Part shown: positions 38,090 through 56,332 of the stretch, one piece after another
How the letters are laid out: every line of letters starts with the position of its first letter
Numbering within the stretch: position 1 is the stretch's first letter
From: an uncultured Bacilli bacterium
GTDB lineage: Bacteria > Bacillota_I > Bacilli_A > RFN20 > CAG-826
Length of the DNA stretch: 64,000 bases
NCBI GenBank assembly: GCA_934140155.1
Contig: CAKPBC010000008.1
Span: forward strand, 1-64,000
Direction: 5' to 3'
Notes under the pieces: model-generated
Databases searched by the model: none
The model's input: only the letters and a program-made list of their open reading frames with translations
Told to the model about the DNA's origin: nothing
Program-made: the position numbers and the translations under genes

Positions 38090-38117
38090 TAAAAAACTGC
38101 TTTAGTATGTAAAGCAG
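38090..38117 (-). terminator. Terminator after WYL regulator gene
   Basis: CTGCTTT-AGTATGT-AAAGCAG with A6 on plus (U-run on minus). Confidence 0.6.
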
Positions 38118-38124
38118 TCATATG

Positions 38125-39075
38125 TTATTTATTCGAATTTGCAATAATTTTTAAGGCGGCTTCTTTTACTTCTTCTTTAAGCCATTCCGGTTCAAGAACT
38201 TCACAATTACCTCTATAATACAATATAAATCCAATCATACGCGGTTTATAACTCATATCAAGTTCAATAATTGTATATTCTTTAACTGCTTCAACAATTT
38301 TTTGATTTTTGCCATAAACTTGAAGTTTAGCATAAATAGCATCTAATCCATAAAATTTTAATTTGACATGATAATACTGTGTATTGCCTAGCATGCCAAA
38401 TTGATCAAGATAATCATGTTCATTATAATACAAATCTTTTACAAATTTTTTATCTAATACAGTCATTTTAACAATTCTACAAAAATCAAAGAAGCGATAA
38501 TCATGAACTCTTTCACAAAAGCCATGAACAAACCATCTATGATTATACATAAAAATTTTATAAGGAAGAATATTACGTCCGCGCACTTCATTATCACTTG
38601 ATATGTAATCAATATAAACTTTTTTTTGTTCTTTGATAGCTTGTTCAAATTCAACATATATTTTATTAATTGCTTCAACTGACATAAACATGGAAAAGCC
38701 ATCAAGTTGAGTTACTTCATTGTATTGTTGATTTGTTAAGTCAATTCTAGAAAATATTTTTGCCATTCCCTGAATAAATTCTTTTCTTTTTGGGAATGTT
38801 GTTCGATTAGCAATATAAGAATATGCTCCTAAAATACTATCTTTTTCTTCGGGTAGCAATTGGATTGAAGGCAATACATTCTTAGAATCAAGTGTATATC
38901 CTCCATATCTTCCTGGAACAGAATTAATATAAAAACCTGCTTCTTCTAATTCCTTACGATATTCAATAATATTTCTTTCGTTAGTGTCAAGTAAAGCCGC
39001 TAATTCGGAGATTTTATATGGTTTGCCCGAATTAAGAATTTGTAACATTTGAATACACATTGCTGCTTTTCCCAT
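38125..39075 (-). CDS. HTH-WYL-WCX transcriptional regulator (BrxR/CapW/PafBC-like); start trimmed to MGKAAM
   Basis: N-terminal wHTH (ISELAALLDTNERNIIEYRKELEEAGF), central WYL domain, C-terminal WCX; RBS AAGGGG. Confidence 0.65.
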   Translation of the reverse strand: MGKAAMCIQMLQILNSGKPYKISELAALLDTNERNIIEYRKELEEAGFYINSVPGRYGGYTLDSKNVLPSIQLLPEEKDSILGAYSYIANRTTFPKRKEFIQGMAKIFSRIDLTNQQYNEVTQLDGFSMFMSVEAINKIYVEFEQAIKEQKKVYIDYISSDNEVRGRNILPYKIFMYNHRWFVHGFCERVHDYRFFDFCRIVKMTVLDKKFVKDLYYNEHDYLDQFGMLGNTQYYHVKLKFYGLDAIYAKLQVYGKNQKIVEAVKEYTIIELDMSYKPRMIGFILYYRGNCEVLEPEWLKEEVKEAALKIIANSNK

Positions 39076-39089
39076 AAACATACCCCTTG

Positions 39090-39602
39090 TTACTTTAAGA
39101 TAAGAAAAGCAAACATAATGATTACTACAATTAGTAATACTATAATAATGTATTCTTTTATATCTTTTTCTTTTTTGTGACAAGTATTTTGTGGCATTTT
39201 TGTCTCTTCAATGTGGGAAAAACTTTTATTTTGTGGTTGTGTTTCTTCTACAATATTTTTTTCATTATTTTCAATACTTAAAAGATTATCTAAACTATGT
39301 TGAACCTTATCAACCATTTTATTTACTTCATTAATCGCTTCTTCATCAAAATCGCCATAATAATAAGCATCATCATAAACAATATCTTTAATATCATCTA
39401 AAGTATCATTTAATATTTTAAAATCCTCTTCAAAAAGCATTTTATCTTTAACATTTAAGCCATCAAATACTTCTTCCAAATCTTCTAATAGATTTGATAA
39501 TTCTACATACGTTTGTTCATCTAATTTGTTGCTTCTACTTAACAAACTATTAATCGAATGAATATATCTATAAAACTTTTTCTTTTTGTTTGTCATGTCC
39601 AT
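39090..39602 (-). CDS. Acidic coiled-coil protein with C-terminal tail-anchor TM
   Basis: D/E-rich, C-terminal IIIVLLIVVIIMFAFLIL hydrophobic anchor. Confidence 0.45.
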   Translation of the reverse strand: MDMTNKKKKFYRYIHSINSLLSRSNKLDEQTYVELSNLLEDLEEVFDGLNVKDKMLFEEDFKILNDTLDDIKDIVYDDAYYYGDFDEEAINEVNKMVDKVQHSLDNLLSIENNEKNIVEETQPQNKSFSHIEETKMPQNTCHKKEKDIKEYIIIVLLIVVIIMFAFLILK

Positions 39603-40206
39603 ACTTGATTTCATCCTTTGATTTAATATATTCTACGTCATCATTAACATTATTCATCATCATGAGTGGGTATCCAATATTTCTTCCATAACTCGCAGCA
39701 TGGTCTAAACATTTTAAAACCATTTCTCTAGCATCTAAATCCTCGTTTCTTATTTCTTGGTATTTTATAATTAATTGTGTTTTACCAATTCCAATACAAA
39801 CCATTTCACTAGATTCTAGTACTCTTCCATATTCATCTATGAGAAAGAGTTTGGTTAATGTAGTTATAATAATCGTGCATTTAATTTCATATCCATAATC
39901 AAATTCATCATAAGTATCGCTTGATTTTCTACAATTTTTAAAAATTTTCGGAATTACTCTATTTATTAAGTAATTATATGAAATATCTTCTTTACCATCT
40001 AATAAATTAGGAATATTTTTTATTACTTGTCCGCAATTGGCATCTCCTGATGTTGCTATAAAGCAATGTTTGGATCCTAAAATACGCTTGATTTTCCAAC
40101 TTTCTTGGCAATTACATAAATGTTCAATATCAGTCCCAGAAGTTCTTACCCCATCAGCACCAATAAATATTTCGTTATTTTTCTTAATTGCAATTATCGC
40201 TGTCAT
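39568..40206 (-). CDS. HslV-like Ntn-hydrolase proteasome subunit homolog (catalytic Thr1 retained)
   Basis: MTAIIAIKKNNEIFIGADGVRTSG aligns gap-free with HslV residues 1-23 (Thr1, Asp17-Gly18, Thr21, Gly23); KIKRI (Lys33 region); GIGKT (GSGG region). Confidence 0.65.
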   Translation of the reverse strand: MTAIIAIKKNNEIFIGADGVRTSGTDIEHLCNCQESWKIKRILGSKHCFIATSGDANCGQVIKNIPNLLDGKEDISYNYLINRVIPKIFKNCRKSSDTYDEFDYGYEIKCTIIITTLTKLFLIDEYGRVLESSEMVCIGIGKTQLIIKYQEIRNEDLDAREMVLKCLDHAASYGRNIGYPLMMMNNVNDDVEYIKSKDEIKYGHDKQKEKVL

Positions 40207-40224
40207 AAATGTTAGTTCCTTTCA

Positions 40225-40803
40225 TTAAAATAATAAAAGTTTATTAATATAATATTTAATTTTATAATCTTTAGTATTAAGTGTAATAAAGCCAATAATG
40301 TTATTGTCTCCATAAATGACCTTTTTTTGAGTCATTACAGAAAGTAAAAATCTTTCATCATGTACATCGACACTATTTTCTTTTGCTATTAATATATCAA
40401 AATCACTAGCATCAGATACCCCTTTGGTTATTTCCCCCATATATTCAAAATCAACAATTTGATATATTTTTCCTTCTGATATAACAAATAAACTGCAACA
40501 TTTTGGACAAACACTATAATTTGATTTAGCTATTAATTGTTTAGCTTTAGGAATAAAAATATCTCTTAAATATTTAAAATCTATATGTTCGTTTTTATTA
40601 AATAAGTTGGGATTGGCAAATAATATTTGTCCTTGTCTTGCACTGCAACAATTTATAACAATTACCTTGCCATATTTATTATTTAAAATTCGTATTTGAA
40701 GATTATTTTTTTCTTTTAAATCATAACAAAGCGAAGAATAATTTGTTAATTGCTGTGCAATGTATATTGTATCGTTTTCTTTATAAACAATTGCTTCTGT
40801 CAT
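40225..40803 (-). CDS. HslV-like paralog 2 (Thr1 present, Asp17/Gly18 replaced)
   Basis: MTEAIVYKENDTIYIAQQ; shared NPNLF..FIPK block with paralog 1. Confidence 0.5.
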   Translation of the reverse strand: MTEAIVYKENDTIYIAQQLTNYSSLCYDLKEKNNLQIRILNNKYGKVIVINCCSARQGQILFANPNLFNKNEHIDFKYLRDIFIPKAKQLIAKSNYSVCPKCCSLFVISEGKIYQIVDFEYMGEITKGVSDASDFDILIAKENSVDVHDERFLLSVMTQKKVIYGDNNIIGFITLNTKDYKIKYYINKLLLF

Positions 40804-41421
40804 TTAAAGTTCCTCCCAACACGAAGATATTTTTGTTGTTTCTATGCTTCCATCTTCATTAAATATTAGTAATTCATTTGTATTAGATTTATATACAATA
40901 AAAGGATAACTTGATTCAGATAACAAATTATTTGTTTCTTTAAATATCATTTTTAACATATCGATGCCACTTAACTTTTTATCATAGGCTTTTTGAACTT
41001 TAAATATATAATAATTTTCTCCTGAGGCATTAAGCCCCCATACCAAATCAACACAATTAGCACCTATATCATAAATTCTCTTTCCATCCATAATCATCAT
41101 TTCAAATGTTGTATCCACTATGGCACTAGATTCAAATGTGGCTGCATCATTGTTCACTATAAAATCTAGATATTTGGGATAAAATTCCTTAAGCATAAAC
41201 TCTTTTGTTAGTGGACTAGGAAAATTATTAGGATTAATTTCATTAACAAATTTATAAAATAGTTTATATTCACCAACATAAGCAATTACAATATTTTTAA
41301 ATTTTTGTATTTTAGCTTGTCTACTATTAATATCATGTATTTTGCTACTAGATATGATTTTTAATGTATCCGCTACTAAATAACTCTCATTACCACATTT
41401 ATACCCAATTATAAATCCCAT
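40804..41421 (-). CDS. HslV-like paralog 3 (Thr1 replaced by Gly; likely non-catalytic)
   Basis: MGFIIGYKCGNESYLVADT aligns with paralog 1 N-terminus; Asp17 retained. Confidence 0.5.
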   Translation of the reverse strand: MGFIIGYKCGNESYLVADTLKIISSSKIHDINSRQAKIQKFKNIVIAYVGEYKLFYKFVNEINPNNFPSPLTKEFMLKEFYPKYLDFIVNNDAATFESSAIVDTTFEMMIMDGKRIYDIGANCVDLVWGLNASGENYYIFKVQKAYDKKLSGIDMLKMIFKETNNLLSESSYPFIVYKSNTNELLIFNEDGSIETTKISSCWEEL

Positions 41422-42044
41422 ATAAATTCTTCCTTTCTTAGTTTTTTACTATTTCCATCAAAAGAAGTTATATTCCAATAGTCATCATTTGTATTTCCAT
41501 AAAGTTTAAAATCGTTTTCATTTTGTTTATCACAATCATATACTTCGATTAAATTATCTAATGAAATTACAAGTTTATTATTTTTTTTAATGATATTGTT
41601 CATTACGCCTTGAGGTATAAAATCATCATGAAATTCATTGATTTCTGTTATTAGCATATTTCCCTCAATTCGATAGGCATTATTATCGATGATAATAATG
41701 ATTTCTCCATCAAATCCAATTGTATTATATTTTTCATTGTTTCTTAATTGATAAATATTTTTTAAAGATTCAATAATATCAAATTTTAAATTATTGATTA
41801 TAAATGGCAAATCAAATTGTTCAATATTTTGTAATCTCTCTTGAAATAACATTTTTAAATACAATTGAGCACTTTTTTGCATTTCAATAAATAAAATAGT
41901 AATGTTATGGTTAGGATTTTCAATGAATTGAATATCAGCATAATTCGAACCAGCATACTCATTTATTGTTTCAACCATTATTAATCTATGTTTAAAAGCA
42001 AAATCAAAACCTTTTTCGGCTTTTTTTAATAAAAATATATCCAT
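41409..42044 (-). CDS. Hypothetical protein of the HslV-like operon
   Basis: 211 aa, no recognisable motifs. Confidence 0.4.
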   Translation of the reverse strand: MDIFLLKKAEKGFDFAFKHRLIMVETINEYAGSNYADIQFIENPNHNITILFIEMQKSAQLYLKMLFQERLQNIEQFDLPFIINNLKFDIIESLKNIYQLRNNEKYNTIGFDGEIIIIIDNNAYRIEGNMLITEINEFHDDFIPQGVMNNIIKKNNKLVISLDNLIEVYDCDKQNENDFKLYGNTNDDYWNITSFDGNSKKLRKEEFIWDL

Positions 42045-42193
42045 AGTAAAACTCCTTATTGTATAGAATAAAAATTGTTGAATTTCAGTTATATTTAAAT
42101 TTAACGTCCATTCAACAAATTGATATGCATTGCTATTTCACTTATTTTTATAGCAATGCATATTTAGATTATATGTTAACTTTATTTTATCAC

Positions 42194-43483
42194 TTAAATG
42201 TTAACAATTTGTTTTAATTGTTTGATAGTAACAAATTTATTTTTTTCTAATGCCTTTGCCACTAAAGCAATTTCCTCTTTATATTGAGATACAATATTTG
42301 TAGCTTTTTCTTTATATTCTCTTAATTTAATATTTGCTAGTTCTTGCCCACGTTCATTTAATGAACGAGCAACATGGTTCTTTTTAGAATCAACTTGCGA
42401 ATATTCTAATCCAAATGCACCTTTTGCAATGCATAGTTCTAATGCTTTTGTTACTCTATTGATATCGTTAATAGAGTAATTTGATTCTTCTTGGAAGAAT
42501 ATATCTTGAACCGCTAATTCTGCTAAAGAGGCAATCGCATCATTTATCATTTGGCTATAAGTTCTATTTTCAATCACTTTATATGCTTGATCATAAACTC
42601 TATATTTATCAGTGATTTTGTTATATCCTGGGTCATCGGTAACATCAACATATGTATATTCTTTGTTAAGGATGACATTAGTTACTGTTTTAGCCGCAAG
42701 AGCATATATTGCTTTTTTGTTATCTAAGACATAATCAATGTAATCATATCCGAACAATGTTTTTTCAACATTTTTTATGATAATATCATCAGTTAATGTT
42801 TTATTAGATTTTCTAGCATCTTCAATTGATTTATTAATAATTTCTATTATTTCTAGGCTAGATGCTCCACATATTCTTTTAATAATAGTTTCAATGTCTA
42901 CATCTTTATCATTAATATCTTTTAAACAATTTTCAATGAGAAGTCTTCTTTCATCATTATCTGGTGATAATAATGTTACTCTTCTTATTAAATATTGCTC
43001 TTCTAAAGTTAATGGCAAATCAAATAATGGTAATCTAGTGGTGATAATAGCAAATACATTAGTAGTTGTTTTTAACTTTTCAACTAATTGATTTAGCATA
43101 TCTTTTTTTACATTACGATTAGTTTTAAGTTCTTCAAAGCTATCAAGTAATAATACTACAGTTTTAGTATGATCTAATGATTCTAAGATAGACTTAAACT
43201 TTGTACTAGGATCTTCGCTATCAATTAATTCTTTGCAATTAATTTCTTTTGAAGCAACTCCACTATTTTCAATGATTGCTTTAGCTATAGTTGTTTTGCC
43301 GTTTGCGGCTTCACTTTCAATAGCGAATGCTTTTGGTAATTCTTTGAGTTCTTTTTGATATTCTTCATAATTTTTAAGAAGATTGATAATTTTAATTGCT
43401 TCTTCTTTTGCTGCGTTATATCCGATAATTTTATTTAATGATTTATATTCGTTTGTGTTAGTCATAGTTTTAATTTCCTCCAC
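42194..43483 (-). CDS. FtsH-like AAA+ protein lacking TM segments, with degenerate Walker B and inactivated M41 zinc site
   Basis: AKEEAIKIINLLKN..ANGKTTIAKAI vs FtsH AKEEL..GPPGTGKTLLAKA; LLLDSFEE instead of hhhhDE; AIITTRLPLFDLP (sensor 1/SRH); YALAAKT in place of HEAGH. Confidence 0.6.
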   Translation of the reverse strand: MEEIKTMTNTNEYKSLNKIIGYNAAKEEAIKIINLLKNYEEYQKELKELPKAFAIESEAANGKTTIAKAIIENSGVASKEINCKELIDSEDPSTKFKSILESLDHTKTVVLLLDSFEELKTNRNVKKDMLNQLVEKLKTTTNVFAIITTRLPLFDLPLTLEEQYLIRRVTLLSPDNDERRLLIENCLKDINDKDVDIETIIKRICGASSLEIIEIINKSIEDARKSNKTLTDDIIIKNVEKTLFGYDYIDYVLDNKKAIYALAAKTVTNVILNKEYTYVDVTDDPGYNKITDKYRVYDQAYKVIENRTYSQMINDAIASLAELAVQDIFFQEESNYSINDINRVTKALELCIAKGAFGLEYSQVDSKKNHVARSLNERGQELANIKLREYKEKATNIVSQYKEEIALVAKALEKNKFVTIKQLKQIVNI

Positions 43484-43632
43484 ATATTTTTGTTTTATAA
43501 ACTTTGTTTTCTATTTTTAAAAAGATAATGATATTTTGATTTTTAATTATTTATGATTTTTTAATTTTTAATTTTTAAGATATTTACCGAATCCCTATTT
43601 GATAAAGGATTCGATAAATTATATTTTATGAG

Positions 43633-43872
43633 TTAGTTATCTTGCCATAGGCATCTAAATGCCTTGAGGACAAAATATAGACCAGACTTTCTAAAGAAGA
43701 TGTCATGAAATACTCCACCGCATCCGCTTCTTCTCATCGTTCTATAATTTATAGCGAAGATAAGTAATCCAACTATACACATAAGCCAAGCAAGTGCGAA
43801 GCAAATAACGAACGCTACCACTAAGAACAAGCTTGCAATTACTCTAGGGACAAATAATAATGCTTTTTTCAT
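43633..43872 (-). CDS. Small membrane protein (79 aa)
   Basis: Two hydrophobic helices, C-terminal Cys/Arg-rich tail. Confidence 0.4.
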   Translation of the reverse strand: MKKALLFVPRVIASLFLVVAFVICFALAWLMCIVGLLIFAINYRTMRRSGCGGVFHDIFFRKSGLYFVLKAFRCLWQDN

Positions 43873-43907
43873 AATTTTAATTTCCTTTATAAAATTATTT
43901 TTAAGCT

Positions 43908-45176
43908 TTAATTAATTTTAATAAATTCTTTAAATTGCTCTGCAGTTATGAATTTCTTTGTTGTTAATTTTTTGGCAATTAATTCGATTTCGTGTCGATA
44001 TTTAATTACAATTTTAGTTGCTTTATCTTTATATTCGATTAATTTGTTATTTAACAACTCTTTACCATGCTTATTTAAAGAAGTATTTACTCCGTGTCCT
44101 TCATAGTCTGGTTGAGTGTAACCTAACCCAAGGGCACCATTTTTAATATATTTCTCTAATAATAAATAAGCTTGGAATGTGTCATTCGAAGAATAATTAG
44201 ATCCTTCTAGGAAGAATACTTCTTCTGATGCTAAACCTGATAATTCAATAATTATTTCATTTAATTTTTCGTTAACAGATTTATTATCATCAATTGATAT
44301 TTCATCATAGTAGTTATCTAAATGAGTAAGTACTTCATAATCATCAATATCTGATATATCAATGTAATCATATTCTTTATTTAAAACAAGATTAGTTACT
44401 GCTTTAGCAGCAAGGCGATATGCTGTTTTTTTGTTAGAAACGATATGCTCATGATAATCATAGCCCATTAATAATTTACCAGCATTTTTTACAATGATAT
44501 CATCAGTTAATGGTTTATTTAATAATTTAGCATCTACAATTGATCTATTAAGAACTTGAATTGTTTTTAAGTTTGATGCACCATTTGTTCTTTTAATGAT
44601 TGTTTGAACATCAACATTTTTGTTTTTAACATCTTTCAAACACTCTTCAATTAAGAGTGCTTTATCTTCTTTGTTTAATGATGGCATTGTTAATTTTTTA
44701 ATCCAAGAACGATCTATAGATGGTAACAACATCCAATTAATAAGCATTTCTGAAGCAATAATGACAAATAAGTAAGGATTGCTTTTTAACTTTGTTAATA
44801 ACATATCCATTATTTGTCTTCCCTCATTGGAAGTAAAATCTATTTCTTCAAAGTTATCAAGGAAGAATATAGTTGTTTTTGAATCTCTTACCTTATTCAA
44901 TAACATTTTTACTTCCTCAATTGCACCAACTTTTATTAGCAATTTGCAATCAACTTCTATTGAATTAACTTGATTACTTTCAATAATTATATGAGCTAAA
45001 GTTGTTTTTCCATTACTTCTATCGCCTTCAATTACCAACATTCTAGGTTGACACTTTGATGTTGTTTGATTTTCTTCAAGGTTTTGAAGAAGATCAATAA
45101 TTTTTTCTGCTTCTTTTTTAACTTCGTTACATCCAATAAGTTTATTTAATTTTGTATATTTGTTTGTGTTAGTCAT
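43908..45176 (-). CDS. FtsH-like AAA+ paralog 2 (GDRSNGKTT Walker A, FLDNFEE Walker B-like, no HEXXH)
   Basis: Paralogous to 42194..43483 over its full length. Confidence 0.6.
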   Translation of the reverse strand: MTNTNKYTKLNKLIGCNEVKKEAEKIIDLLQNLEENQTTSKCQPRMLVIEGDRSNGKTTLAHIIIESNQVNSIEVDCKLLIKVGAIEEVKMLLNKVRDSKTTIFFLDNFEEIDFTSNEGRQIMDMLLTKLKSNPYLFVIIASEMLINWMLLPSIDRSWIKKLTMPSLNKEDKALLIEECLKDVKNKNVDVQTIIKRTNGASNLKTIQVLNRSIVDAKLLNKPLTDDIIVKNAGKLLMGYDYHEHIVSNKKTAYRLAAKAVTNLVLNKEYDYIDISDIDDYEVLTHLDNYYDEISIDDNKSVNEKLNEIIIELSGLASEEVFFLEGSNYSSNDTFQAYLLLEKYIKNGALGLGYTQPDYEGHGVNTSLNKHGKELLNNKLIEYKDKATKIVIKYRHEIELIAKKLTTKKFITAEQFKEFIKIN

Positions 45177-45333
45177 ATATCGTTTATTTCCTCCACATAT
45201 TTTTTTCTGCTTTAATTTAATACAAGTTATTCGATTTTTTATTTGGTTTTGTGTTTTCTATTTTCTTCAAACACTAATTGATATTTAATTTTTTGTAAAT
45301 CTTTATATTTAATTTTTAATATTTAGTGAATCA

Positions 45334-45453
45334 TTATTTATTAATTAAAGATTCTATGAATTTAATGGTTGCTGTTATCCAACCATAGTAGCAAGCTGCA
45401 TAGCCAAACGCTATGCAGAGTATTGATGAGAAAATGCTTTTGATTACTCTCAT
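45334..45453 (-). CDS. Unlisted small hydrophobic peptide (39 aa) with GGAGGG RBS
   Basis: ATG preceded by GGAGGGATTTAA; MRVIKSIFSSILCIAFGYAACYYGWITATIKFIESLINK. Confidence 0.35.
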   Translation of the reverse strand: MRVIKSIFSSILCIAFGYAACYYGWITATIKFIESLINK

Positions 45454-45539
45454 TTAAATCCCTCCTTTACTAAGATTTGTAGACTAATAATTAATCCTCC
45501 TTCTTCGTAAATAAGATAATTTCTAGATAGTATTTACTG

Positions 45540-45731
45540 TTATACTATTGATGTAATGATGAGAAATACTCCACCAACTAAAGCGCCTAATGCAATTATG
45601 ACAAACATAATTCCATAAAAGCCTCTTAAGTTCTCTGGTGTTCTCTTTATACACAAGATTGTAGATACAATTGCAAATGCGATGAGTAATACTCCAATAA
45701 TCACATTTGTGACAAGTGATAATAGAATCAT
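45540..45731 (-). CDS. Small two-TM membrane protein (63 aa)
   Basis: RBS GGGAGG; two hydrophobic helices. Confidence 0.45.
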   Translation of the reverse strand: MILLSLVTNVIIGVLLIAFAIVSTILCIKRTPENLRGFYGIMFVIIALGALVGGVFLIITSIV

Positions 45732-45804
45732 TGATGTTTCCTCCCTTCTTTTTAATAATCTATGAAGTCTTTGTTCATAGACAAACGCTAGTATACGGGT
45801 TAAT

Positions 45805-45823
45805 GTTACATTATTGATGTAAC
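45805..45823. promoter_or_regulatory. Palindromic box GTTACAT-TATTG-ATGTAAC (copy 1)
   Basis: Perfect 7-5-7 inverted repeat; identical extended 24-mer at 46510. Confidence 0.5.
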
Positions 45824-45899
45824 AAACTTTTTTTTGTTAATTTTTTTTTAAAATAATTTAAGTTATTTTTTTTGTATGCGATTTTTCTTTTATATATCC

Positions 45900-46328
45900 T
45901 TATATTAATATACTAGTCTCAATACTATTTCCGTTTAGAAGATTTAACCTAATGTCTTTATCACATTCTTCACACATAGCGTCATATCTTAGCCTTTGCC
46001 ATGTGTTCTTTTTTTTGTATTTAAGATTATTACGTGTTTCCCAGAATATTTCATCTTCCATATCACATAAGCGATTTTGTTCTTGAATAGAATGAACCTT
46101 GAAGTATGGATCATTATTCATTTCTTTAATTTCTAAATAATATTCTTCAACTGTAATTCTTTCAACGTATCTAATTGCGTCTTTATGGTGATGTTTTACT
46201 CTTGGAAATGCTCTTGCTAGTTTAGCGGCTTCTTCGCCATCTTCCGCTCGAAGGAATAACCATTTAAGGACATATCTGTTTTTTCCTACATGTCCACATT
46301 TAGCAAGTACTTTATAAAAATTATTCAT
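45900..46328 (-). CDS. Hypothetical protein (142 aa)
   Basis: ORF with RBS; no family recognised. Confidence 0.4.
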   Translation of the reverse strand: MNNFYKVLAKCGHVGKNRYVLKWLFLRAEDGEEAAKLARAFPRVKHHHKDAIRYVERITVEEYYLEIKEMNNDPYFKVHSIQEQNRLCDMEDEIFWETRNNLKYKKKNTWQRLRYDAMCEECDKDIRLNLLNGNSIETSILI

Positions 46329-46509
46329 ATTAACTACCTCCTTATTTAGTTGTTAATTTAGAAGTATAAATATTGGTATTTAATTTTTATTGACGCCACT
46401 AGTTTGGCTATATATGCATTAATTATGGTAATTAACGCTTTAACTACTATCCTCCTTTCTTTTTTCCTATGTGCTCTTTCACATAAGCAAAGCAATTTTA
46501 AACTAATAT

Positions 46510-46528
46510 GTTACATTATTGATGTAAC
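46510..46528. promoter_or_regulatory. Palindromic box GTTACAT-TATTG-ATGTAAC (copy 2)
   Basis: Identical to 45805 copy including flanks TGTTACATTATTGATGTAACAAAC. Confidence 0.5.
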
Positions 46529-46582
46529 AAACATTTTTTATTTATTTCTATATGAATAAAATAGAATAATCATACTTATTAT

Positions 46583-47650
46583 TTAATCACCTGACTTAAA
46601 GTTAAATCTATTATAATTTTCGATAATTTTCGAGCAAATGATTGACGAAGAAAAATTAGAAAGGGCAAACACTTGTTTACTTAGTAGTAAATCATAATCT
46701 GTTATTGAATCAATAATGTCATCTATATTAGTTTCAGAATAATTGTATAATAATGGCATATCAATTTCTTTTAATAACTTATTAGCATCTGAAATAACAA
46801 TAGTGCCCTCCATAATTGAATAGCTTACCCTATCATGAATGCAGTAATCAAAATTAGGATTGCAATTCAAGATATACTTATATTTTTTAGATGTTGATAT
46901 TATTTTGTTGTAATTAAGCGGATTAATAAAAACAACATTTTTTGAAAAAATCAAATTATCTGGATTGTTTGAAGCAATTATTACCATATGCTTTTTTATA
47001 GAAGAAATTGATTTTAATCTTTTTTGTATTCTAATATATCCGTTAACTATTTCGAAAAATTCTTTTTCATTAATAATTTGATGTGTTTCTCTATAATTGC
47101 AATAAAATTCTCCAAAACTTGAATCAAAATCATATTTATCTAAAAAATCAAGTATTAACTCTTTTTCTTTGCTTTTATCTATTAAATTTTCAAAAAAACT
47201 TTTACTTTTTATTTTTATTGGCGCAAATATGGCATCTATTTTATTTTGACATCTTCTTGTTTGAGTTTTAAAAGGAATTGGCAAGGTCAAATAATCACTT
47301 CTATTATTTTGAATAAACAATTTAAAACTATTATCTATAAATATCATACGATTATATTTTGAATAATAATCACAGTTATCGTATCTTAATGGATTATCAA
47401 TTATCCACTGATAATTAATAACTTCGTATAAGTCATATAATGGTTTTTGATCTTTATAAAAATGATATTGCCCAATATTTAATGTAAAATTTATGCGTTT
47501 ATTAGTCAGACAATAAATTGCTTCATCAATAGTATTAGCAATAAAAATATGTATATGATTATTAATAAACATATCAATAATAACTTTATAAAATTCATCA
47601 AAAGAGTTATATACTCCTTTATAGTTATCTTTTAAAATTAAAACATTCAA
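46583..47650 (-). CDS. Hypothetical protein, possibly degenerate GT-B glycosyltransferase-like
   Basis: C-terminal HDRVSYSIMEGTIVISD resembles GT4 E-x7-E region. Confidence 0.3.
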   Translation of the reverse strand: MNVLILKDNYKGVYNSFDEFYKVIIDMFINNHIHIFIANTIDEAIYCLTNKRINFTLNIGQYHFYKDQKPLYDLYEVINYQWIIDNPLRYDNCDYYSKYNRMIFIDNSFKLFIQNNRSDYLTLPIPFKTQTRRCQNKIDAIFAPIKIKSKSFFENLIDKSKEKELILDFLDKYDFDSSFGEFYCNYRETHQIINEKEFFEIVNGYIRIQKRLKSISSIKKHMVIIASNNPDNLIFSKNVVFINPLNYNKIISTSKKYKYILNCNPNFDYCIHDRVSYSIMEGTIVISDANKLLKEIDMPLLYNYSETNIDDIIDSITDYDLLLSKQVFALSNFSSSIICSKIIENYNRFNFKSGD

Positions 47651-47683
47651 TGTACATTTCTCCTAATTCATAAAATCTTTATA

Positions 47684-48544
47684 TTAATAATTCTTAGTCC
47701 ATTCATCTTTTTGCTTTTTGGAAACACTCCATTTTGTTCTAGGATTATTCTTTTCATTTATATGGCAATACTTACAAAATTTATTAGGTGTCCTTAAAAA
47801 ATCTAATATCTCTTTACTTGAATGTTCATATATATCTATACCTGTATTAGTAGTATCATATTTTTCATTAAAATATTCATTAAATAAAGGAATATATGCG
47901 GCATGTGGGCAAAAATATAACATTCCATCACGCAAATTGCAACAATTATTAGCATACTTACATTCTAAAAAAGTTTTTTTGTAATCTAATAAATCCATTT
48001 TACTCAACCCCATATTTTTCCAAACATTATTAGTGGTTCTAACATTAAATGTTTCAATCATTACTTGTTTACTTTTTACAAAACGATATAATTCTTCATA
48101 ATCAATACCTATTGGATATGTAGAAACACATATTTCCACATTATTTTTCTTACATGCATCAAAGAATTTTTCGGGCATGCTTTTAATTAAAATTCCATTT
48201 GTAATTAATTGAAGTTTCGCATTCGGCAAGCAGCATCTAGAAATATCTAAATATTTAATAATATTGGGATTAGTTAATGGTTCACCGCCCATAATATGTA
48301 ACTGTTTGCAATTTTCTCCAAATAGTTCATAAATTCTTTTCAAATCTTGTTCATATTTATCTAATTCATAAATAGAATTTTTTTTAGCCAATGGTGAAAA
48401 ATGGTCACATCCACTGCAATTCAGATTACATGAATCAATAACATGAACTTCAAACCAAAATGGAATTCTTTTGGATTTTTTTCCTATTATTTTATATTTT
48501 ATTATTTCCATTTGCTTTGATATTTCACTTCTTTTTTTTATCAT
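47684..48544 (-). CDS. Radical SAM enzyme with C-terminal auxiliary Cys cluster
   Basis: CNLNCSGC (CX3CX2C), GGEPL, C-terminal CX5CC..C and CKYC. Confidence 0.65.
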   Translation of the reverse strand: MIKKRSEISKQMEIIKYKIIGKKSKRIPFWFEVHVIDSCNLNCSGCDHFSPLAKKNSIYELDKYEQDLKRIYELFGENCKQLHIMGGEPLTNPNIIKYLDISRCCLPNAKLQLITNGILIKSMPEKFFDACKKNNVEICVSTYPIGIDYEELYRFVKSKQVMIETFNVRTTNNVWKNMGLSKMDLLDYKKTFLECKYANNCCNLRDGMLYFCPHAAYIPLFNEYFNEKYDTTNTGIDIYEHSSKEILDFLRTPNKFCKYCHINEKNNPRTKWSVSKKQKDEWTKNY

Positions 48545-48550
48545 AAATAT

Positions 48551-49831
48551 TTACCTCCTTTTTATCGCCTTTATAACAAAGGAAGTGGGATACTTTTCCT
48601 CATGATATCTAAGTTCATCAAATAAACTTATATTAAATTTTGTTAATAAACTTGAAAAAATATCTTTCAACATATATTCTCTATATAAACATTTAGGATA
48701 CTTTTCACTTCTTTCAAAATTATAAGGCATATATCCGTAAAATGGCGAAGAATAAAAATAATCATCATTAATTTGAACAGCCAAAGATTTATTATCTACT
48801 AATTTTAAAAAAGGGTGAAAATCATGCAAAATATATACACCATTGTCTTTTAATAGCGATGCCACATTTTCCATGAAAATATTGATATCTAAAAAATAAT
48901 GTAAAACACCAACTGTAGAAATTACCATATCAAACTTATTTCCACAAGTTTCAATTTTTTTAGACAAATCAACATTTATATATTCTAATTTTTGTTGCAA
49001 ACAATCGGCACATTCACTTGCATATTTTTTTCCAGAAGTAGAATAATCGAAAACAGTAACGTGAGCACCATTTAAAACCAAAGAATTGGCTAATCTGCCA
49101 CAGGAATCACATACACAAGCAATTTTTTTTCCTTTTATATCTCCAATATATGGATAATATTTTTGAAAAATATTGTCTTTACCATTATATAAATTTCTTG
49201 CCATTACATCAGGTGTTCCATATCTTTTTAACCAATAATCATAAGTTTTAAAATCCCATGCTATTCTATTATTTGATGAAAATTCTTTTTCTCCCAAAAT
49301 TGATACAATTTCGTATAAAGGATCTCTACTGCATCCAACAATATTAAGCTCTTTTTCAATGATGTGTTTTAATTTTTGAATTTCCTTTACTTGATATAAA
49401 GCAATATCTTCTATGGAAAAATCATAAACACTTTTTAATCCATTTGTATCAAGCATTCGTTCATATATTTTACGCGGATTTGTTTTCAAATAAAAATATA
49501 CATCACCAATTTTATGATAAGAATCAGGTCTAAAATCAAGAAGAGTTTTATCTTTTAATAAATAACCAGCATGATAATCTAAAAAAACATATCTATATTT
49601 AGAATTATATTTTAAAATTTGTTGAAGAGATAATTCATATAGTTTATTTTGCTGATTCAATGTTAATGAACCATTATCTGCTTTTCCAAATAATTTAATA
49701 GATAATTCATCTTGTATTTTATTCCTTTTTATATGCACAGCATCGTTACCATAATAATTTAAAAGACGTTTTATTAAAGTTGTTTTTCCACTTCTTTGAA
49801 CTCCATATATAAGAACTATCATTTTATTCAT
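48551..49831 (-). CDS. P-loop kinase-like domain fused to class I SAM-dependent methyltransferase
   Basis: GVQRSGKTTL Walker A; C-terminal MTase motifs (ACVCDSCGRLA, DMVISTVGVLHYF). Confidence 0.5.
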   Translation of the reverse strand: MNKMIVLIYGVQRSGKTTLIKRLLNYYGNDAVHIKRNKIQDELSIKLFGKADNGSLTLNQQNKLYELSLQQILKYNSKYRYVFLDYHAGYLLKDKTLLDFRPDSYHKIGDVYFYLKTNPRKIYERMLDTNGLKSVYDFSIEDIALYQVKEIQKLKHIIEKELNIVGCSRDPLYEIVSILGEKEFSSNNRIAWDFKTYDYWLKRYGTPDVMARNLYNGKDNIFQKYYPYIGDIKGKKIACVCDSCGRLANSLVLNGAHVTVFDYSTSGKKYASECADCLQQKLEYINVDLSKKIETCGNKFDMVISTVGVLHYFLDINIFMENVASLLKDNGVYILHDFHPFLKLVDNKSLAVQINDDYFYSSPFYGYMPYNFERSEKYPKCLYREYMLKDIFSSLLTKFNISLFDELRYHEEKYPTSFVIKAIKRR

Positions 49832-51233
49832 CTCCTGATATATTAGTTATTATTTTTTGAATATCTTCATTGCTAAATCCAAGATTTATCAGATAAGTAT
49901 TAACATCATGATATGTATATCTAAAACATTCTAAAAAGCAAGAAAACTTTTTTTTGGCATCGTGGTACTTTGTATTATGTTCATATTCTCCTCTTTGATT
50001 TTGATATATTTCATCGGTCAATAAATATTCGCAAATGATTTCTTCATCTGAAGAGCCTAATAACATTTCACATAGCATAGCAACGATTCCTGTTCTATCC
50101 TTACCAATCATACAATTAATTAAAATTTTATTACTAGATTCTTTTATATAGTTAAATATATTACGAAACGCCTCTTTTTGAGCCAATAAATACAAATAAT
50201 ATTCATTTAAATTTTTTACAAATTGAATATTATCTTCTTTCTTTTTTTTATTTGCATGAAAAATCGTTATATTTATCCAGTTAAAATTATCAATTAAAAA
50301 GAATGGCTTTTCTTTATCTTTAAAATTTCTTAAATCAATAATAGTAGTTACATTCATGTTTTTTAGAGTATCAATGTCTTCACTATTAAAAGGAATATAA
50401 TCACTTCTAATTAAGTTTGTATTAAAAGTGTTTGCTTTTACAAATCTAGTATTATTTGTAGATTTTAGCAATGATTCAAAACATACAACTCTACCATTTG
50501 TATTAAAATAATTTTCAAATGTATAATAATTCTTACTAAAAAAGAATCGTAAAACTTTTATATTTTGGTTTGGGTTGTCTAAATATAAAATTGCAGCTCT
50601 ATGTGTGCCATCTCTTATAATATTGTCATTATTATAGACAATTATATATTGATTATTCTCGCCATATTTTAATTTTTTAAATGAATCAAGAATTTCATTG
50701 AATCTTTCCTTATGACTTTGATTATGCAAGTTAGTCAATGTTTTTATTTCAAGATTTTCTTTGTTAGTTAAAAAGCATAAATGTTCACTTTCAGATACGT
50801 GCTTTATAGATTTATCTATAGAGAAAATAAGTAAATCTTTTAAAGAAATTACTTCTTCTTTTACATAGAGTAAATATGGTAAATCTATAGCAAGCATATA
50901 TCCCATATATACACCATCTAAAGCATTATAATCCAATCCTGAAACTGGATAATTATTCCTTAAATCACACTTGGTTATTACAAAAAGACTATTAAATTCA
51001 GTTAAATTTAGCAAATAATCTCTATTTTTTAAAATTATCCTAATTTTGTCATTTGAAACATATGCATTTAAGAAAGAATAACTAGCAGAAGAAATAAAAA
51101 AAGCTTTTTTTGTTTTTTTTAAGAACCAGTAAATTTCTTTTTCTAAGCGATACAAAAAAGAAACAAATATTAAATATTCAATTTCATTCATTACTATATC
51201 ATCTTGTTTTATTCGTACTTTAAATTTTTTCAT
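49824..51233 (-). CDS. Two-domain protein with C-terminal Y_phosphatase3-type tyrosine phosphatase domain
   Basis: CMIGKDRTG (CX5R) and TTIIDLRN motif; N-terminal 300 aa unassigned. Confidence 0.5.
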   Translation of the reverse strand: MKKFKVRIKQDDIVMNEIEYLIFVSFLYRLEKEIYWFLKKTKKAFFISSASYSFLNAYVSNDKIRIILKNRDYLLNLTEFNSLFVITKCDLRNNYPVSGLDYNALDGVYMGYMLAIDLPYLLYVKEEVISLKDLLIFSIDKSIKHVSESEHLCFLTNKENLEIKTLTNLHNQSHKERFNEILDSFKKLKYGENNQYIIVYNNDNIIRDGTHRAAILYLDNPNQNIKVLRFFFSKNYYTFENYFNTNGRVVCFESLLKSTNNTRFVKANTFNTNLIRSDYIPFNSEDIDTLKNMNVTTIIDLRNFKDKEKPFFLIDNFNWINITIFHANKKKKEDNIQFVKNLNEYYLYLLAQKEAFRNIFNYIKESSNKILINCMIGKDRTGIVAMLCEMLLGSSDEEIICEYLLTDEIYQNQRGEYEHNTKYHDAKKKFSCFLECFRYTYHDVNTYLINLGFSNEDIQKIITNISGDE

Positions 51234-52191
51234 AAGGATTTTTAGTTGCCTTCCCTATTTTGCTAAAATCTATGTACTTCGCCATATCTAAATTAGATTC
51301 ATAAGGATTCAATATTGCAATTCCGCTAGCAGAAGAAAATGTTAATTCGCCAAAATATATTTTTTCGCCAACGGCATACAAATCCACTCTAACAAAATCA
51401 AAATACAAAGAAAGTTCAGATGTGATTTTTTGCATTTTATCTAACACATTAACATCTAACTTCATATCAATCATTTTATACTCAGGACACTGGAAATATG
51501 TCATTTCATAATTTTTATTAAAAATCGTACGTTTATGATTATTAAATCTATTAGTGTCAACGGAAAAATACTTCATATCACCATTAAAACAAAAAAATTT
51601 ATAATCTGGCAAATCATTTGAATTGGCTAAATATTGTGTAATAAAAATACATGGTTTTATATTTTTGTATTGCATTTCGTATCCATGGCAATAAGCATAA
51701 TTAATCTGCAATTCTTTATTTAGTTTCTTTTGAAGCTTAAAAAAACCTTTTTTCCCTAATTTGTCTTTACTACGAACAATATGAGTCATATGTGCTCCAT
51801 GATTGCATTGAATGACAAAACTATTAGGTAATTCTTCAAAATTAATTTCCATAGCATTATAAAAATATTCTTTTCCATTATTTTTAATAATTGGTATCAA
51901 AAAATCTTCACCTATTGTGTTTTTTATGAAACTTCTAACTAAATATTTATCTGTGCAATATGTTTTTATATAATTGTCATTTTGAAGTTTTAAAACTTGC
52001 TGCTTTTCTGTAAATGTTTTAGGATTATCTAAGTCTAACTTTAATCCTGTTTTTTTATAGTACCAACATTTTAAGTACTCTTCTTTTTTATTTGTTCTTT
52101 CAAACTTTAATTCACGTCTTATTTCTTTTTTCCAAATTTCAATATAAAAAATATTTTCTTTAAGCCATTTAATTAATTTCATTGTTATCAA
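51220..52191 (-). CDS. ATP-grasp amidoligase, TupA-like family
   Basis: DLPDYKFFCFNG and RVDLY..GELTFS signatures. Confidence 0.5.
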   Translation of the reverse strand: MITMKLIKWLKENIFYIEIWKKEIRRELKFERTNKKEEYLKCWYYKKTGLKLDLDNPKTFTEKQQVLKLQNDNYIKTYCTDKYLVRSFIKNTIGEDFLIPIIKNNGKEYFYNAMEINFEELPNSFVIQCNHGAHMTHIVRSKDKLGKKGFFKLQKKLNKELQINYAYCHGYEMQYKNIKPCIFITQYLANSNDLPDYKFFCFNGDMKYFSVDTNRFNNHKRTIFNKNYEMTYFQCPEYKMIDMKLDVNVLDKMQKITSELSLYFDFVRVDLYAVGEKIYFGELTFSSASGIAILNPYESNLDMAKYIDFSKIGKATKNPYEKI

Positions 52192-53587
52192 TTCCTAAAA
52201 TCGCATCCGCAAGTTTATTCTGTTCTAATTTATACGATACTTTATGTAAAATACTTTTTAATGCAGAAGAACATTTGCAATAATATACAGGCTCACGCAA
52301 CTTTATAATTTCATAAAAAAAGTCATCAATTGTATTTAGGTACTTAACTCCAATGTTGTTGCCAACAATGGTATGTATAACTGTTAGTTTATTATTTATT
52401 AAAGTTGGAAGTCCAGCACTTATGCCTTCAAATATCCCACGGCCAAAAGTTTCCCAATTTGATGTTGAAATATTAATATCACATAATTCTAATAAAGAGG
52501 CTAACTCTTCTTGTAATATAGATATATGGAATATAATGTATTTATCTAAATTATTAATTAATATATAATGTAGCATTTCATCATATATCTCTTTTTCTTG
52601 AATAGTGGTCACTAAATGTAATTTTACTCTTATTCCATTTTTTATTAATTTGTTCAATAATTCAAGTTGCATTATATTGTTTTTTTGTTTTTTTATAGAA
52701 CCTATACAAATTAGATTTATTTCATCTCCACATGATTTTCTGATTCTAAAATGTATATGCGTGTCAATTCCTCTATATATAACATTGATTTTATCTTCAG
52801 ATATTAGATATTCACTTATTAAATCTTGTTTTTCTTCTATTGATGGAGTAATAATTTTATTCACAGATTGTAATACATTACATTCCTGCTTTGAATATTC
52901 TATGGGTACAAATTCTCCAGCACGTTGATATGAATGAGTACAAAACATTGGAAATAATATGGTTTTTTTCCAAAACGATTCTCCAAAATCGCATCCAAAG
53001 AATTTACTTACATGCGCAGTTACAACTTTATCATATTTTTCAAAATCTTTTAAAGCTTCAATGTTTGTATCTAGATTTTTTAGTCGCCTTATAAATTTAT
53101 TATTAAGAGCATCCTTATACCTATAATAAAAAACATTTTTAATATAGTTATTAACATATATTTCATTGTTTTTTCTTATAAAAGCAACATCCAATTTACA
53201 TCTTTTTTTTAATGTGTCTATTAGTTGTTTGGCTAAAATGCTACCACCATCTATATCCTTTCCATATCCGGGAAATTTTCCCAAATAAAGTAAAACTTTC
53301 ATATCCGATCTTAAGAAATCATTATATGCTTTATTCAATGCACAAACAAATGGATGATGGCCTCCAATAAATTCTATGCACTCATTAATGTATTTAATCT
53401 CGTCACATAAAATATATTGTAAATTATAATCCGTATTTTGTATTTTATGTCCAATATACACTGAAAAGTCTTCTTTTTTCACTTTCCCATTAATAGAAAA
53501 ATCTTTCAACTTAGTAAATCTATTAACTAACTTTTCATCTTGAAAAAATTTTTTATAGCAATAATTATCTAAAATCAATTTTTTCAT
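52169..53587 (-). CDS. Glycosyltransferase family 4-like (C-terminal GT-B domain) with N-terminal extension
   Basis: ETFGRGIFEGISAGLPTL (E-x7-E). Confidence 0.55.
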   Translation of the reverse strand: MKKLILDNYCYKKFFQDEKLVNRFTKLKDFSINGKVKKEDFSVYIGHKIQNTDYNLQYILCDEIKYINECIEFIGGHHPFVCALNKAYNDFLRSDMKVLLYLGKFPGYGKDIDGGSILAKQLIDTLKKRCKLDVAFIRKNNEIYVNNYIKNVFYYRYKDALNNKFIRRLKNLDTNIEALKDFEKYDKVVTAHVSKFFGCDFGESFWKKTILFPMFCTHSYQRAGEFVPIEYSKQECNVLQSVNKIITPSIEEKQDLISEYLISEDKINVIYRGIDTHIHFRIRKSCGDEINLICIGSIKKQKNNIMQLELLNKLIKNGIRVKLHLVTTIQEKEIYDEMLHYILINNLDKYIIFHISILQEELASLLELCDINISTSNWETFGRGIFEGISAGLPTLINNKLTVIHTIVGNNIGVKYLNTIDDFFYEIIKLREPVYYCKCSSALKSILHKVSYKLEQNKLADAILGIDNNEIN

Positions 53588-53812
53588 AAATTACACTCCG
53601 CCTTAAATACATTTTAATTAACTCTAAAACAACTTATAATCTTCCTTCATTATTTTGAAAAAAATACTCTTCAATTTAATACACTTAATAAAACGAAATA
53701 AATAATTATAGTTTTAGTTCTTTGTTTTTTATTTAATTAATCTAATAATCTAAATTTTTATAATTAATGTTAGCAACAACAATTAAAACATAATCAAATT
53801 GAGTTTGTTTGA

Positions 53813-54349
53813 TTACGTTAAATTCATTATTTTTTGCACTTGATTGGTTTTTAGATAAATTTGTCTATCAAAATCAAAATTATTCTTTTCAATTGGAATA
53901 CCTAGAACACTTTCTAACAATTTGTATTTAGTATCTATGGTATAAGAAAATAATTTTAAATACTCAGAAAACATGTCGATCATTAGTATATTAGAATTTT
54001 TCAAACTCGACAATAAGCACCTTTGATTTGAAAATAAAACTGTTTTTTTCGCGTGACATGCTAAATAAGTAAACAAATAAAAATTCTCATCTACAATTGC
54101 ATAGTGCTCATGTAAATCAATATTTTTTAATTTTGAAATTACTTTTTGGTTCATTTTTTCTCGAATGTTTTTTGGAAAGCCAGACACAAAAACCACTTTT
54201 TTTAAACTATTGTACATTTTTTTGGCAACATATGTTTTCCCAATACATGGTTTTCCAACTACAATGATGCTATTCGAATTAGACTTCATTATCGTTTGTA
54301 AAATTCCGGTTTCATATTCATTTATTTTCTTTAACAAATTTATATCCAT
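53813..54349 (-). CDS. Small P-loop NTPase
   Basis: VVGKPCIGKT Walker A. Confidence 0.4.
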   Translation of the reverse strand: MDINLLKKINEYETGILQTIMKSNSNSIIVVGKPCIGKTYVAKKMYNSLKKVVFVSGFPKNIREKMNQKVISKLKNIDLHEHYAIVDENFYLFTYLACHAKKTVLFSNQRCLLSSLKNSNILMIDMFSEYLKLFSYTIDTKYKLLESVLGIPIEKNNFDFDRQIYLKTNQVQKIMNLT

Positions 54350-55487: not shown

Positions 55488-55681
55488 TAAAAACTATCGC
55501 CCCATGATGGAGTGTCAGCCCAACCATGATCTCCCCAAGAATCGCTCCATTCACGCCAACGATTTCCTGAATCATCTTCATTTTGCAATTCATCATAAAA
55601 ATTGCTAGAATCTTCATATAATGAATTCCATTCTGCCAATAAAGCATTGCTGGTTTTTTCATTATTTATAAAATCATTCAT
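55487..55681 (-). CDS. RiPP precursor peptide candidate: acidic leader plus C-terminal core with five W-x-(D/E) triplets
   Basis: Core GNRWREWSDSWGDHGWADTPSWGDSF; strong RBS AGGAGG; translationally coupled to rSAM/SPASM gene. Confidence 0.6.
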   Translation of the reverse strand: MNDFINNEKTSNALLAEWNSLYEDSSNFYDELQNEDDSGNRWREWSDSWGDHGWADTPSWGDSF

Positions 55682-55701
55682 AATTAAATCCTCCTAAAAA
55701 A

Positions 55702-55731
55702 ATTATACCCCCCCCCGTAGCATTTTGTCAA
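55702..55731 (-). promoter_or_regulatory. Promoter TTGACA-18-TATAAT with G9 homopolymer in spacer (candidate phase-variable)
   Basis: Minus strand reads TTGACAaaatgctacGGGGGGGGGTATAAT then tttttAGGAGG and ATG. Confidence 0.55.
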
Positions 55732-55746
55732 ATATAATTTTGCCTT

Positions 55747-55824
55747 GAAGTGCTATGAAGTGCTATTAATAAAGTAGACACAATTTAGCATTTATGTAGA
55801 CAGTTATATGTCATTTGTAGACAT
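55747..55824. repeat. Intergenic direct-repeat array: GAAGTGCTAT x2 tandem, then TGTAGACA-type x3 with 22-bp phasing
   Basis: GTAGACA at 55774, 55796, 55818. Confidence 0.6.
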
Positions 55825-55857
55825 TAATTTTATAATTGTATACAGAAAGGAGCTTTT

Positions 55858-56034: not shown

Positions 56035-56101
56035 AAAATTTAAAAATGTAAATAAAATTCTTTTTTGTTATTATTTTTATAAATTGATTAAGTAACGAAT
56101 A

Positions 56102-56308: not shown

Positions 56309-56332
56309 TTTTCGAATATAAAACCAACTTTA

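Follow-up and report, generated by a model that had tools for sequence, protein, structure and literature searches.

On the minus strand of the window (the whole stretch analysed here, the first 64,000 nucleotides of contig CAKPBC010000008.1 in assembly GCA_934140155.1, from an uncultured Bacilli bacterium), a compact gene string between 38.1 and 45.8 kb encodes four consecutive proteins of the proteasome fold, P1 to P4, one of which is predicted to be catalytic. The open reading frames (ORFs) of this string were first described in a reading of the DNA made without database searches, hereafter the original prediction, and all are present at the coordinates reported there. From first to last, the genes are m63, an ORF for a 39-amino acid (aa) peptide, A2, m79, A1, P1, P2, P3, P4, p174, and a gene for an HTH-WYL-WCX transcription regulator. 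The names P1, P2, P3 and P4 stand for proteins that had been called u211, N3, N2 and N1, respectively. P1 overlaps P2, P2 abuts P3, and the start of p174 overlaps the end of P4, and this overlapping or abutting arrangement of P1-P4 is consistent with translational coupling. A gap of 150-330 nucleotides (nt) precedes P1 in every genomic context.

On its sequence and predicted structure, P4 (39568..40206, minus strand) is a proteasome-family N-terminal nucleophile (Ntn) hydrolase with Thr1/Asp17/Lys33, and a predicted peptidase. The assignment of P4 as the catalytic subunit, with residues Thr2/Asp18/Gly19/Lys38 in the encoded protein, draws on family, motif and an AlphaFold2 (AF2) model. Taken by itself, P4 is a borderline match to Pfam Proteasome PF00227, with 20.4 bits (E=4e-4), just under the cut-off of 22.4. 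When 1.84e9 representative proteins were searched exhaustively by profile, a P4 family of 138 clusters emerged, with proteins of ~190-200 aa. PF00227 is matched by 52 of the 61 members scanned (E<0.01; best 1.8e-14), and phrog_1040, annotated 'peptidase HslV family', by 47 of the 61. Conserved in the aligned family are an M-[T/S] N-terminus, Asp18, Lys38, Gly54, a G-S-G motif, and Pro180. P4 has no propeptide, such that removal of the initiator Met would expose Thr1.

A PDB sequence profile search with the P4 family gave no match, and the fold was settled by structure prediction instead. The AF2 model (pLDDT 94.3) resembles solved structures of BPH (5ovs, TM-score 0.81), HslV (1m4y, TM-score 0.76) and 20S beta subunits in a Foldseek comparison, with E down to 6e-11, and also resembles many phage HslV-like proteins. 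The P4 superfamily takes in phage proteins annotated 'peptidase HslV family', from T5-like phages and from Geobacillus virus E3. For P4 itself, two peptide patterns found no match among 185,579 species representatives, the patterns found no match in a viral contig scan, and tblastn against phage and plasmid records found no match. The original prediction had called these proteins HslV-like, a label that did not hold as such. With the HslV equivalog models (TIGR03692 / NF003964), P4 reaches 18.8-19.5 bits for cut-offs of 137-158, with only the first ~43 residues aligned, P4 stands no nearer to HslV than it does to BPH or to beta subunits of the proteasome, and no HslU gene was found in the locus by the ORF list and profile scans.

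Three paralogs of this type had been proposed, next to a 211-aa protein listed as unknown. The proteasome/HslV-type Ntn fold stood, and the count did not, because the 211-aa protein, P1 (41409..42044, minus strand), is a fourth and the most divergent paralog. In profile-profile alignment (hhalign) with the P4 superfamily, P2 (40804..41421, minus strand) has a match probability of 98.9% (E=2.2e-17, 195 columns) and P3 (40225..40803, minus strand) one of 98.5% (E=1.6e-15, 185 columns), both over their full length, and P1 one of 96.2% (E=2.3e-9, 103 columns). With three close sequences per family, the comparisons of P4 with P2 and with P1 are insignificant, and significance needed distant orthologs and a 61-member superfamily profile. 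P3 also matches P4 by blastp (E=1e-6), and P2 matches phrog_1040 with E=0.0065. In the case of P1, the AF2 model (pLDDT 78.8) is placed by Foldseek with Anbu, BPH and 20S subunits only at the top of the PDB list, and P0227, an ortholog of P1 in another lineage, matches the P4 profile (E=3e-6) as well as the u211 profile (E=9e-9). Thus, the alignments, the model and the P0227 link show four paralogs rather than three.

The full catalytic set T2/D18/G19/K38 is kept by P4 alone among the four paralogs, and is invariant, in agreement with the proposal that a single copy retains Thr1, Asp17 and Gly18. The P4 N-terminus MTAII[AG]IK and D18 are likewise invariant across 9 loci. In the window, P2 has Gly2 instead of the nucleophile and keeps the equivalents of Asp17 and Lys33, P3 has a Thr at position 2 that is not conserved across orthologs and is without Asp17, and P1 has none of the nucleophile, Asp17 and Lys33 residues. 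The P3 N-termini, together with the blastp and hhalign matches, identify it as a non-catalytic proteasome-fold paralog. In two cassettes from other genomes, P2 begins MSVIIALK (L100, 2185-2799; L101, 168-797), and the L100 protein also keeps Asp18; by this start, some cassettes may carry a second active (Ser1) subunit. Two ORFs of 311-336 aa, P0190 and P0226, join a P3-like N-terminal half to a P4-like C-terminal half without the MT start, and represent either fused genes or neighbouring cassette genes whose calls run across a frameshift.

The order P1-P2-P3-P4 recurs in at least seven distinct loci of different Firmicutes. Orthology holds position by position between the cassettes of the window, L001, L007, L011, L015/L016, L017/L018, L100 and L101. 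Identities to the window proteins are 23-43% for P4, 15-36% for P2, 22-33% for P3 and 20-29% for P1, and several of the relatives sit on very short contigs. By gene content across these genomes, the cassette is the conserved unit of the locus, and what lies around it falls into three types of context. In the first (the window, L001-L006 and L010), A1, A2 and small membrane proteins are encoded upstream, and p174 and the WYL regulator downstream. In the second, genes for a lipoprotein, two permeases and an ABC ATPase lie directly upstream (L007, 4422-7829; L015, 4374-7851), in the same place as the FtsH-like genes of the window. This arrangement is found in L007/L008, from a sister strain of the window's species, and in L015/L016, from a metagenome, and is kept between L007 (27% GC) and L015 (43% GC) at protein identities of 27-29%. 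In each permease, a single N-terminal transmembrane (TM) helix is combined with three C-terminal ones, an FtsX/MacB-like topology. In the third type there is no adjacent ATPase, and the cassette is preceded by a RelB/FtsK-gamma-like gene (small winged helix-turn-helix/RelB-like) in L017/L018, from a Bacilli metagenome-assembled genome, or by a small 68-aa gene in L100, where DUF1643 stands beside the cassette. Downstream of P4 in L007, a p174 remnant of 92 aa without the TM helix (10563-10841) implies that a deletion in that strain removed the WYL gene together with the 3' part of p174.

The cassette also differs from its surroundings in how it varies within the first type of context. Between the window and L001, nucleotide identity is 76-87% in the cassette and 95-99% in the flanks, with sharp boundaries at ~39.6 and ~42.0 kb, and synonymous divergence (dS) is 0.39-0.63 in the cassette as against 0.07-0.11 in A1, A2 and the WYL gene, about five times higher. 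The ratio of nonsynonymous to synonymous divergence (dN/dS) is 0.15-0.34 for all four cassette genes, such that the seemingly dead paralogs are maintained by selection. The amino-acid identity of the window cassette is 74-83% to L007 and 67-81% to L001, even though it is L001 that shares the AAA flanks, from which it follows that cassette alleles have been exchanged independently of their surroundings. These patterns of divergence point to recombination that replaced alleles, and not to a relaxation of selection, and, in the sequences compared, the cassette behaves as an exchangeable allele inside an otherwise near-identical operon.

Upstream of the cassette lie the genes for A1 (42194..43465, minus strand) and A2 (43908..45176, minus strand), which the original prediction described as two FtsH-like proteins of about 425 aa. 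Their FtsH ancestry and the absence of TM helices and of a HEXXH site were borne out. The A1 gene, given there as running to 43483, probably starts at 43465 instead, which gives 423 aa, the length also found in orthologs. A1 and A2 share 44% identity and represent a tandem duplication (42635-43466 and 44349-45177, spacing ~1711 nt) in which the similarity reaches into the ribosome-binding regions (repeat families D1-D3 and D6). Residues 18-428 of a joint A1/A2 profile align with residues 27-467 of FtsH 6gcn (E=2.7e-15) through the AAA+, lid and M41 regions, and TIGR01241 gives 40-41 bits, for a cut-off of 600, with E~1e-10 over the lid and M41 region. The alignment begins after the second TM helix of FtsH, and neither protein has an N-terminal TM helix. 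A simple hydropathy scan found no TM helix in A1 or in P1-P4, and in A2 only a weak segment (136-154, score 1.83), which corresponds to sensor-1 in the AAA core.

The motifs of A1 and A2, read from an alignment with genuine FtsH, are extensively altered. The Walker A sequence GKPGTGKT of FtsH is GDRSNGKT, and thus intact, in A2, and the degenerate SEAANGKT in A1, where the first Gly is lost. The pore loop 1 segment EMFAGLGA (MFxG) is deleted in both, Walker B DE is DN in A2 and DS in A1, and the sensor-1 pair TN is SE in A2 and TR in A1. The second region of homology (SRH), RPGRFDR in FtsH, reads PSIDRSW in A2 and TLEEQYL in A1, which leaves A2 with one of the two Arg fingers and A1 with neither, and the zinc site HEAGH is replaced by RLAAK in A2 and ALAAK in A1. 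No HbYX-like tail is seen at the C-termini as read from the sequence (…IVNI, …IKIN). Purifying selection is evident from dN/dS values of 0.12 and 0.26 for A1 and A2 between the window and L001. The losses of the pore-loop aromatic, the Walker B Glu, sensor-1 and Arg fingers make an unfoldase role unlikely, and by their motifs the two FtsH-derived proteins look like pseudo-enzymes rather than the unfoldase partners of the peptidase that had been proposed.

A search of 5.8e9 proteins found the A1/A2 family in three close clusters only, all from this species, and the next-best matches are genuine FtsH proteins at 24-27% identity. The pairing of AAA+ protein and peptidase is for this reason not a conserved combination, and the cassette occurs without AAA+ proteins in the sister strain and in other lineages; of the proposed gene neighbourhood, the co-occurrence of P1-P4 in fixed order is found, and co-occurrence with A1/A2 is not found outside this species. 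The idea that proteolysis had been handed from FtsH to the Ntn subunits is left without comparative support, since the pairing is not conserved.

The string ends with the gene for the HTH-WYL-WCX regulator (38125..39075, minus strand), just outside the span first described. Its assignment was confirmed by Pfam, with matches all above cut-offs (WYL E=1e-12, WCX 1.3e-6, HTH_11 3e-6), and by the PADLOC WYL model (E=1e-29). The protein has 316 aa when read from M37 of a long ORF, in keeping with orthologs called at 311-316 aa, and is 98% identical in L001. A perfect palindrome, TGTTACAT-N5-ATGTAACA, occurs in two exact copies (45804..45824 and 46509-46529), with 0 expected by chance. One copy lies ~75 nt upstream of m63 and is conserved in L001, and the other lies ~180 nt upstream of a gene for a 142-aa protein. 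The palindrome is a candidate operator, possibly for the WYL regulator.

Small membrane proteins are interleaved with these genes, as had been noted. By hydropathy, m63 (45540..45731, minus strand; 97% identity in L001), the first gene of the string, encodes a protein with two TM helices, and m79 (43633..43872, minus strand; 99% identity in L001) one with a single TM helix at 16-34. The p174 protein (39090..39614, minus strand) has an acidic soluble region followed by one C-terminal TM helix (155-173), in a tail-anchored arrangement; no significant family match was found for it in profile scans. Between m63 and A2 lies a further gene, for the 39-aa hydrophobic peptide MRVIKSIFSSILCIAFGYAACYYGWITATIKFIESLINK (45334..45453, minus strand), which has a strong ribosome-binding site (Shine-Dalgarno) and is absent from the ORF list because it falls below the 40-aa cut-off.

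The string occupies part of the interval from rpsD to tyrS (38100-57300 of the window), a hotspot that varies between strains and in which the locus is present, absent or remodelled, and the proposed placement in an accessory island is thereby supported. The genes found near cassettes include those for HipA, AbiEii, a PLD-DEAD-DUF3427 helicase and a NUDIX protein in L017/L018, for HipA-like and AAA_21 proteins in L015/L016, for a colicin-DNase toxin with a DUF6985 partner, PBECR4 and a CI-like repressor in L007, for a TIR-Sel1/TPR protein in L001, and for FHA, kinase, PP2C and AAA proteins in L011. By their gene content, such neighbourhoods are typical of conflict islands. The host, a low-GC gut bacterium that the analysis placed in Clostridia, has a TyrRS no more than 74% identical to that of any species representative.

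The explanation that we favour, and which we regard as possible though not quite an even call, is that the cassette encodes a heteromeric proteasome-like peptidase that works autonomously and has accessory modules, linked to the membrane, that can be interchanged; in this species it would be under the control of the WYL protein. Here, P1-P4 would assemble into one self-compartmentalising particle, with one catalytic and three structural or regulatory types of subunit, by analogy with 20S particles that mix active and inactive subunits. The particle may be the effector of a conflict or stress system, probably anti-phage or abortive. The accessory module would vary by lineage, being absent in some, the lipoprotein, two FtsX-like permeases and ABC ATPase in others, and an FtsH-derived pair in this species, where m63, the 39-aa peptide, m79 and p174 would complete it. 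A1 and A2 might form a nucleotide-binding ring that scaffolds the peptidase, tethers it to the membrane, or gates it; as they keep the AAA+ and hexamer-forming M41 folds without the motifs for translocation and hydrolysis, such roles are likelier than that of a threading unfoldase. The HTH-WYL-WCX protein would make expression conditional, perhaps through the TGTTACAT-N5-ATGTAACA palindromes.

Several points weigh against this explanation. We infer hetero-oligomerisation from co-linearity, gene overlap or abutment, and joint purifying selection only. Among proteasome homologs, moreover, there are proteins that act otherwise than as proteases, such as the ligase connectase, and proteins that form no closed ring, such as Anbu. 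A role in defence is suggested through guilt by association, no PADLOC model existing for P1-P4. Weak ATPase activity is possible in A2, in which Walker A is intact and the Asp of Walker B and one Arg of the SRH remain, and AAA+ proteins accompany the cassette in a single species only. The 150-nt gap before P1 means that the cassette may have its own promoter. Finally, the upstream side is lost to contig ends in two loci, the 5' side of the cassette ending at the contig end in L011 and the first cassette gene being cut by it in L101.

An unlikely alternative is that two unrelated systems stand side by side, with a mobile cassette flanked by chance in the rpsD-tyrS hotspot by m63-A2-m79-A1 on one side and p174-WYL on the other. 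The independent swapping of cassette alleles would be expected in such a case, as would a window cassette that resembles the one in the ABC-type L007 more than the one in the AAA-flanked L001, and the gaps before P1 in every context. The arrangement of the flanks argues otherwise, as the AAA+ module is split round the cassette (A1/A2 upstream, p174 and WYL downstream), p174 overlaps the end of P4, and a p174 remnant is still attached to the cassette in L007. Moreover, none of the contigs examined has A1/A2 without the cassette.

Distinctly unlikely, in light of the motif losses, is an HslUV- or 26S-like ATP-dependent protease in which A1/A2 form an FtsH-type unfoldase ring docked on the Ntn ring and the latter replaces the FtsH metalloprotease. 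Such a machine would fit genes that all lie on one strand with short gaps, the FtsH AAA+/lid/M41 architecture that A1/A2 keep under purifying selection, the canonical Walker A of A2, and the presence in other lineages of an ABC ATPase module at the same place upstream of P1. However, the MFxG segment of pore loop 1 is deleted in both proteins, Asn or Ser stands in place of the Walker B Glu, the sensor-1 Asn is missing, A1 has neither Arg finger and A2 one of the two, and the A1 P-loop has no first Gly. The C-termini offer no HbYX-like tail, the AAA+ family is confined to this species, and cassettes exist without any AAA+ neighbour.

More improbable still is a sequence-specific peptide-processing or ligating machine, either connectase-like or one that matures a secreted peptide or toxin, with the ABC ATPase and lipoprotein acting as exporter or immunity proteins and the FtsH-derived pair as chaperones. 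The conserved lipoprotein, two permeases and ABC ATPase beside the cassette, which have the same components as bacteriocin immunity and export modules, would suit this role, as would the polymorphic-toxin genes nearby in L007 and the fact that proteasome homologs include a ligase and many members of unknown quaternary structure (PMC8665760). Yet no precursor-peptide gene was recognised, the cassette is also found without a nearby transporter, and the P4 model has a plain beta-subunit fold, predicted to be without the connectase-type insertion. A housekeeping role in protein quality control, as a lineage-specific substitute for HslUV or ClpP, would suit the proteasome-family fold and intact active site but is highly improbable for a locus that is strain-variable at one hotspot, rare (as judged by the two P4 patterns unmatched among the species representatives), accompanied by a WYL regulator and conflict-type neighbours, and raised in allele divergence across the cassette.

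The heteromeric peptidase that we favour can be set against known systems. P4 shares with BPH and HslV (MEROPS T1) the alpha-beta-beta-alpha Ntn fold, Thr1/Asp17/Lys33 and the absence of a long propeptide. BPH and HslV are single-gene homo-oligomers, whereas the cassette has four distinct paralogs in fixed order, three of them without the nucleophile, and the locus has no HslU. To our knowledge, the bacterial proteasome homologs studied so far (HslV, BPH and Anbu) are all single-gene homo-oligomers. Active and inactive paralogs of one fold are instead a feature of the 20S proteasome (archaeal, actinobacterial and eukaryotic), with the difference that P1-P4 show no alpha-subunit N-terminal helix signature, that identity to 20S subunits is <20%, and that no Pup/Mpa/PAN-type partner is present at the locus. 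The Pup-proteasome gene locus of actinobacteria likewise encodes regulators of the WYL type (PafBC). In the evolution of the eukaryotic 20S proteasome, the differentiation of subunits into active and inactive ones is considered a hallmark.

For A1 and A2, the closest likeness is to FtsH, with which they align through AAA+, lid and M41, and to FtsHi, the catalytically inactive FtsH relatives of chloroplasts, with which they share the loss of HEXXH. Unlike FtsH and FtsHi, they are without TM helices or a periplasmic domain, and pore loop, Walker B Glu, sensor-1 and, in whole or in part, the Arg fingers have been lost. The locus also recalls IetAS in pairing ATPase and protease genes in a defence-island context, and A1/A2 have a weak IetA/IteA similarity (E=6e-7 to 7e-6). 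However, the IetS protease is a subtilase and not an Ntn hydrolase, and no IetS is present at the locus. An IetAS-like system was rejected, the similarity being of a generic AAA+ kind (24-29 bits, for a cut-off of 510).

The largest survey of homologs new to the superfamily, by Fuchs, Alva and Lupas in 2021, described 22 new families of proteasome homologs (PPH, AAH, FC1-FC5 and others), including phage-linked and Firmicute-only clusters, and states that genomic context was uninformative and that AAA+ partners were not found to co-occur; its supplement contains no operon data (PMC8665760). The inclusion of phage HslV-family proteins in the P4 superfamily is reminiscent of the phage-linked PPH and AAH groups of that survey, in which several clusters are restricted to Firmicutes. 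The P1-P4 families, compared with those clusters by description only, may individually already be listed there. Unlike the surveyed families as described, the genes studied here form a fixed four-paralog operon with ATPase-containing neighbour modules.

As the original prediction supposed, the combination does not correspond to a described system, in that no PADLOC-DB v2 model matched P1-P4 and literature searches found no description of such a proteasome-fold operon. What appears to be new is the fixed four-paralog operon, the single active subunit, the exchange of alleles, and the alternative ATPase-containing neighbours. The locus makes testable the origin of heteromeric rings, the role of orphan homologs, and the part of a proteasome-type protease in bacterial conflict or defence, and A1/A2 are a naturally occurring case of an FtsH cut down to a soluble pseudo-enzyme. 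A stronger claim, which we put forward tentatively and regard as doubtful, is that the cassette encodes an independently evolved four-subunit bacterial proteasome-like particle, with one active and three inactive paralogs, and that it moves through conflict islands and plugs into membrane-associated pseudo-FtsH or FtsX/ABC modules; if true, cassette and ATPase modules would together make up a new effector class in immunity or conflict, one built on a protease.

A prophage origin of the window cassette was rejected, as no phage genes lie around it and P4 is without a phage match. An Rfam scan of 37-47 kb gave no match, and promoter and terminator scans were uninformative in DNA this AT-rich. 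The 142-aa protein downstream of the second palindrome copy (45900-46328, minus strand) has no family match, is 99% conserved in L001, and always adjoins the module. The rpsD-tyrS interval of the window also holds genes for a glycosyltransferase, a TupA-like ATP-grasp protein, two radical SAM proteins, a methyltransferase and a Y_phosphatase3 protein.

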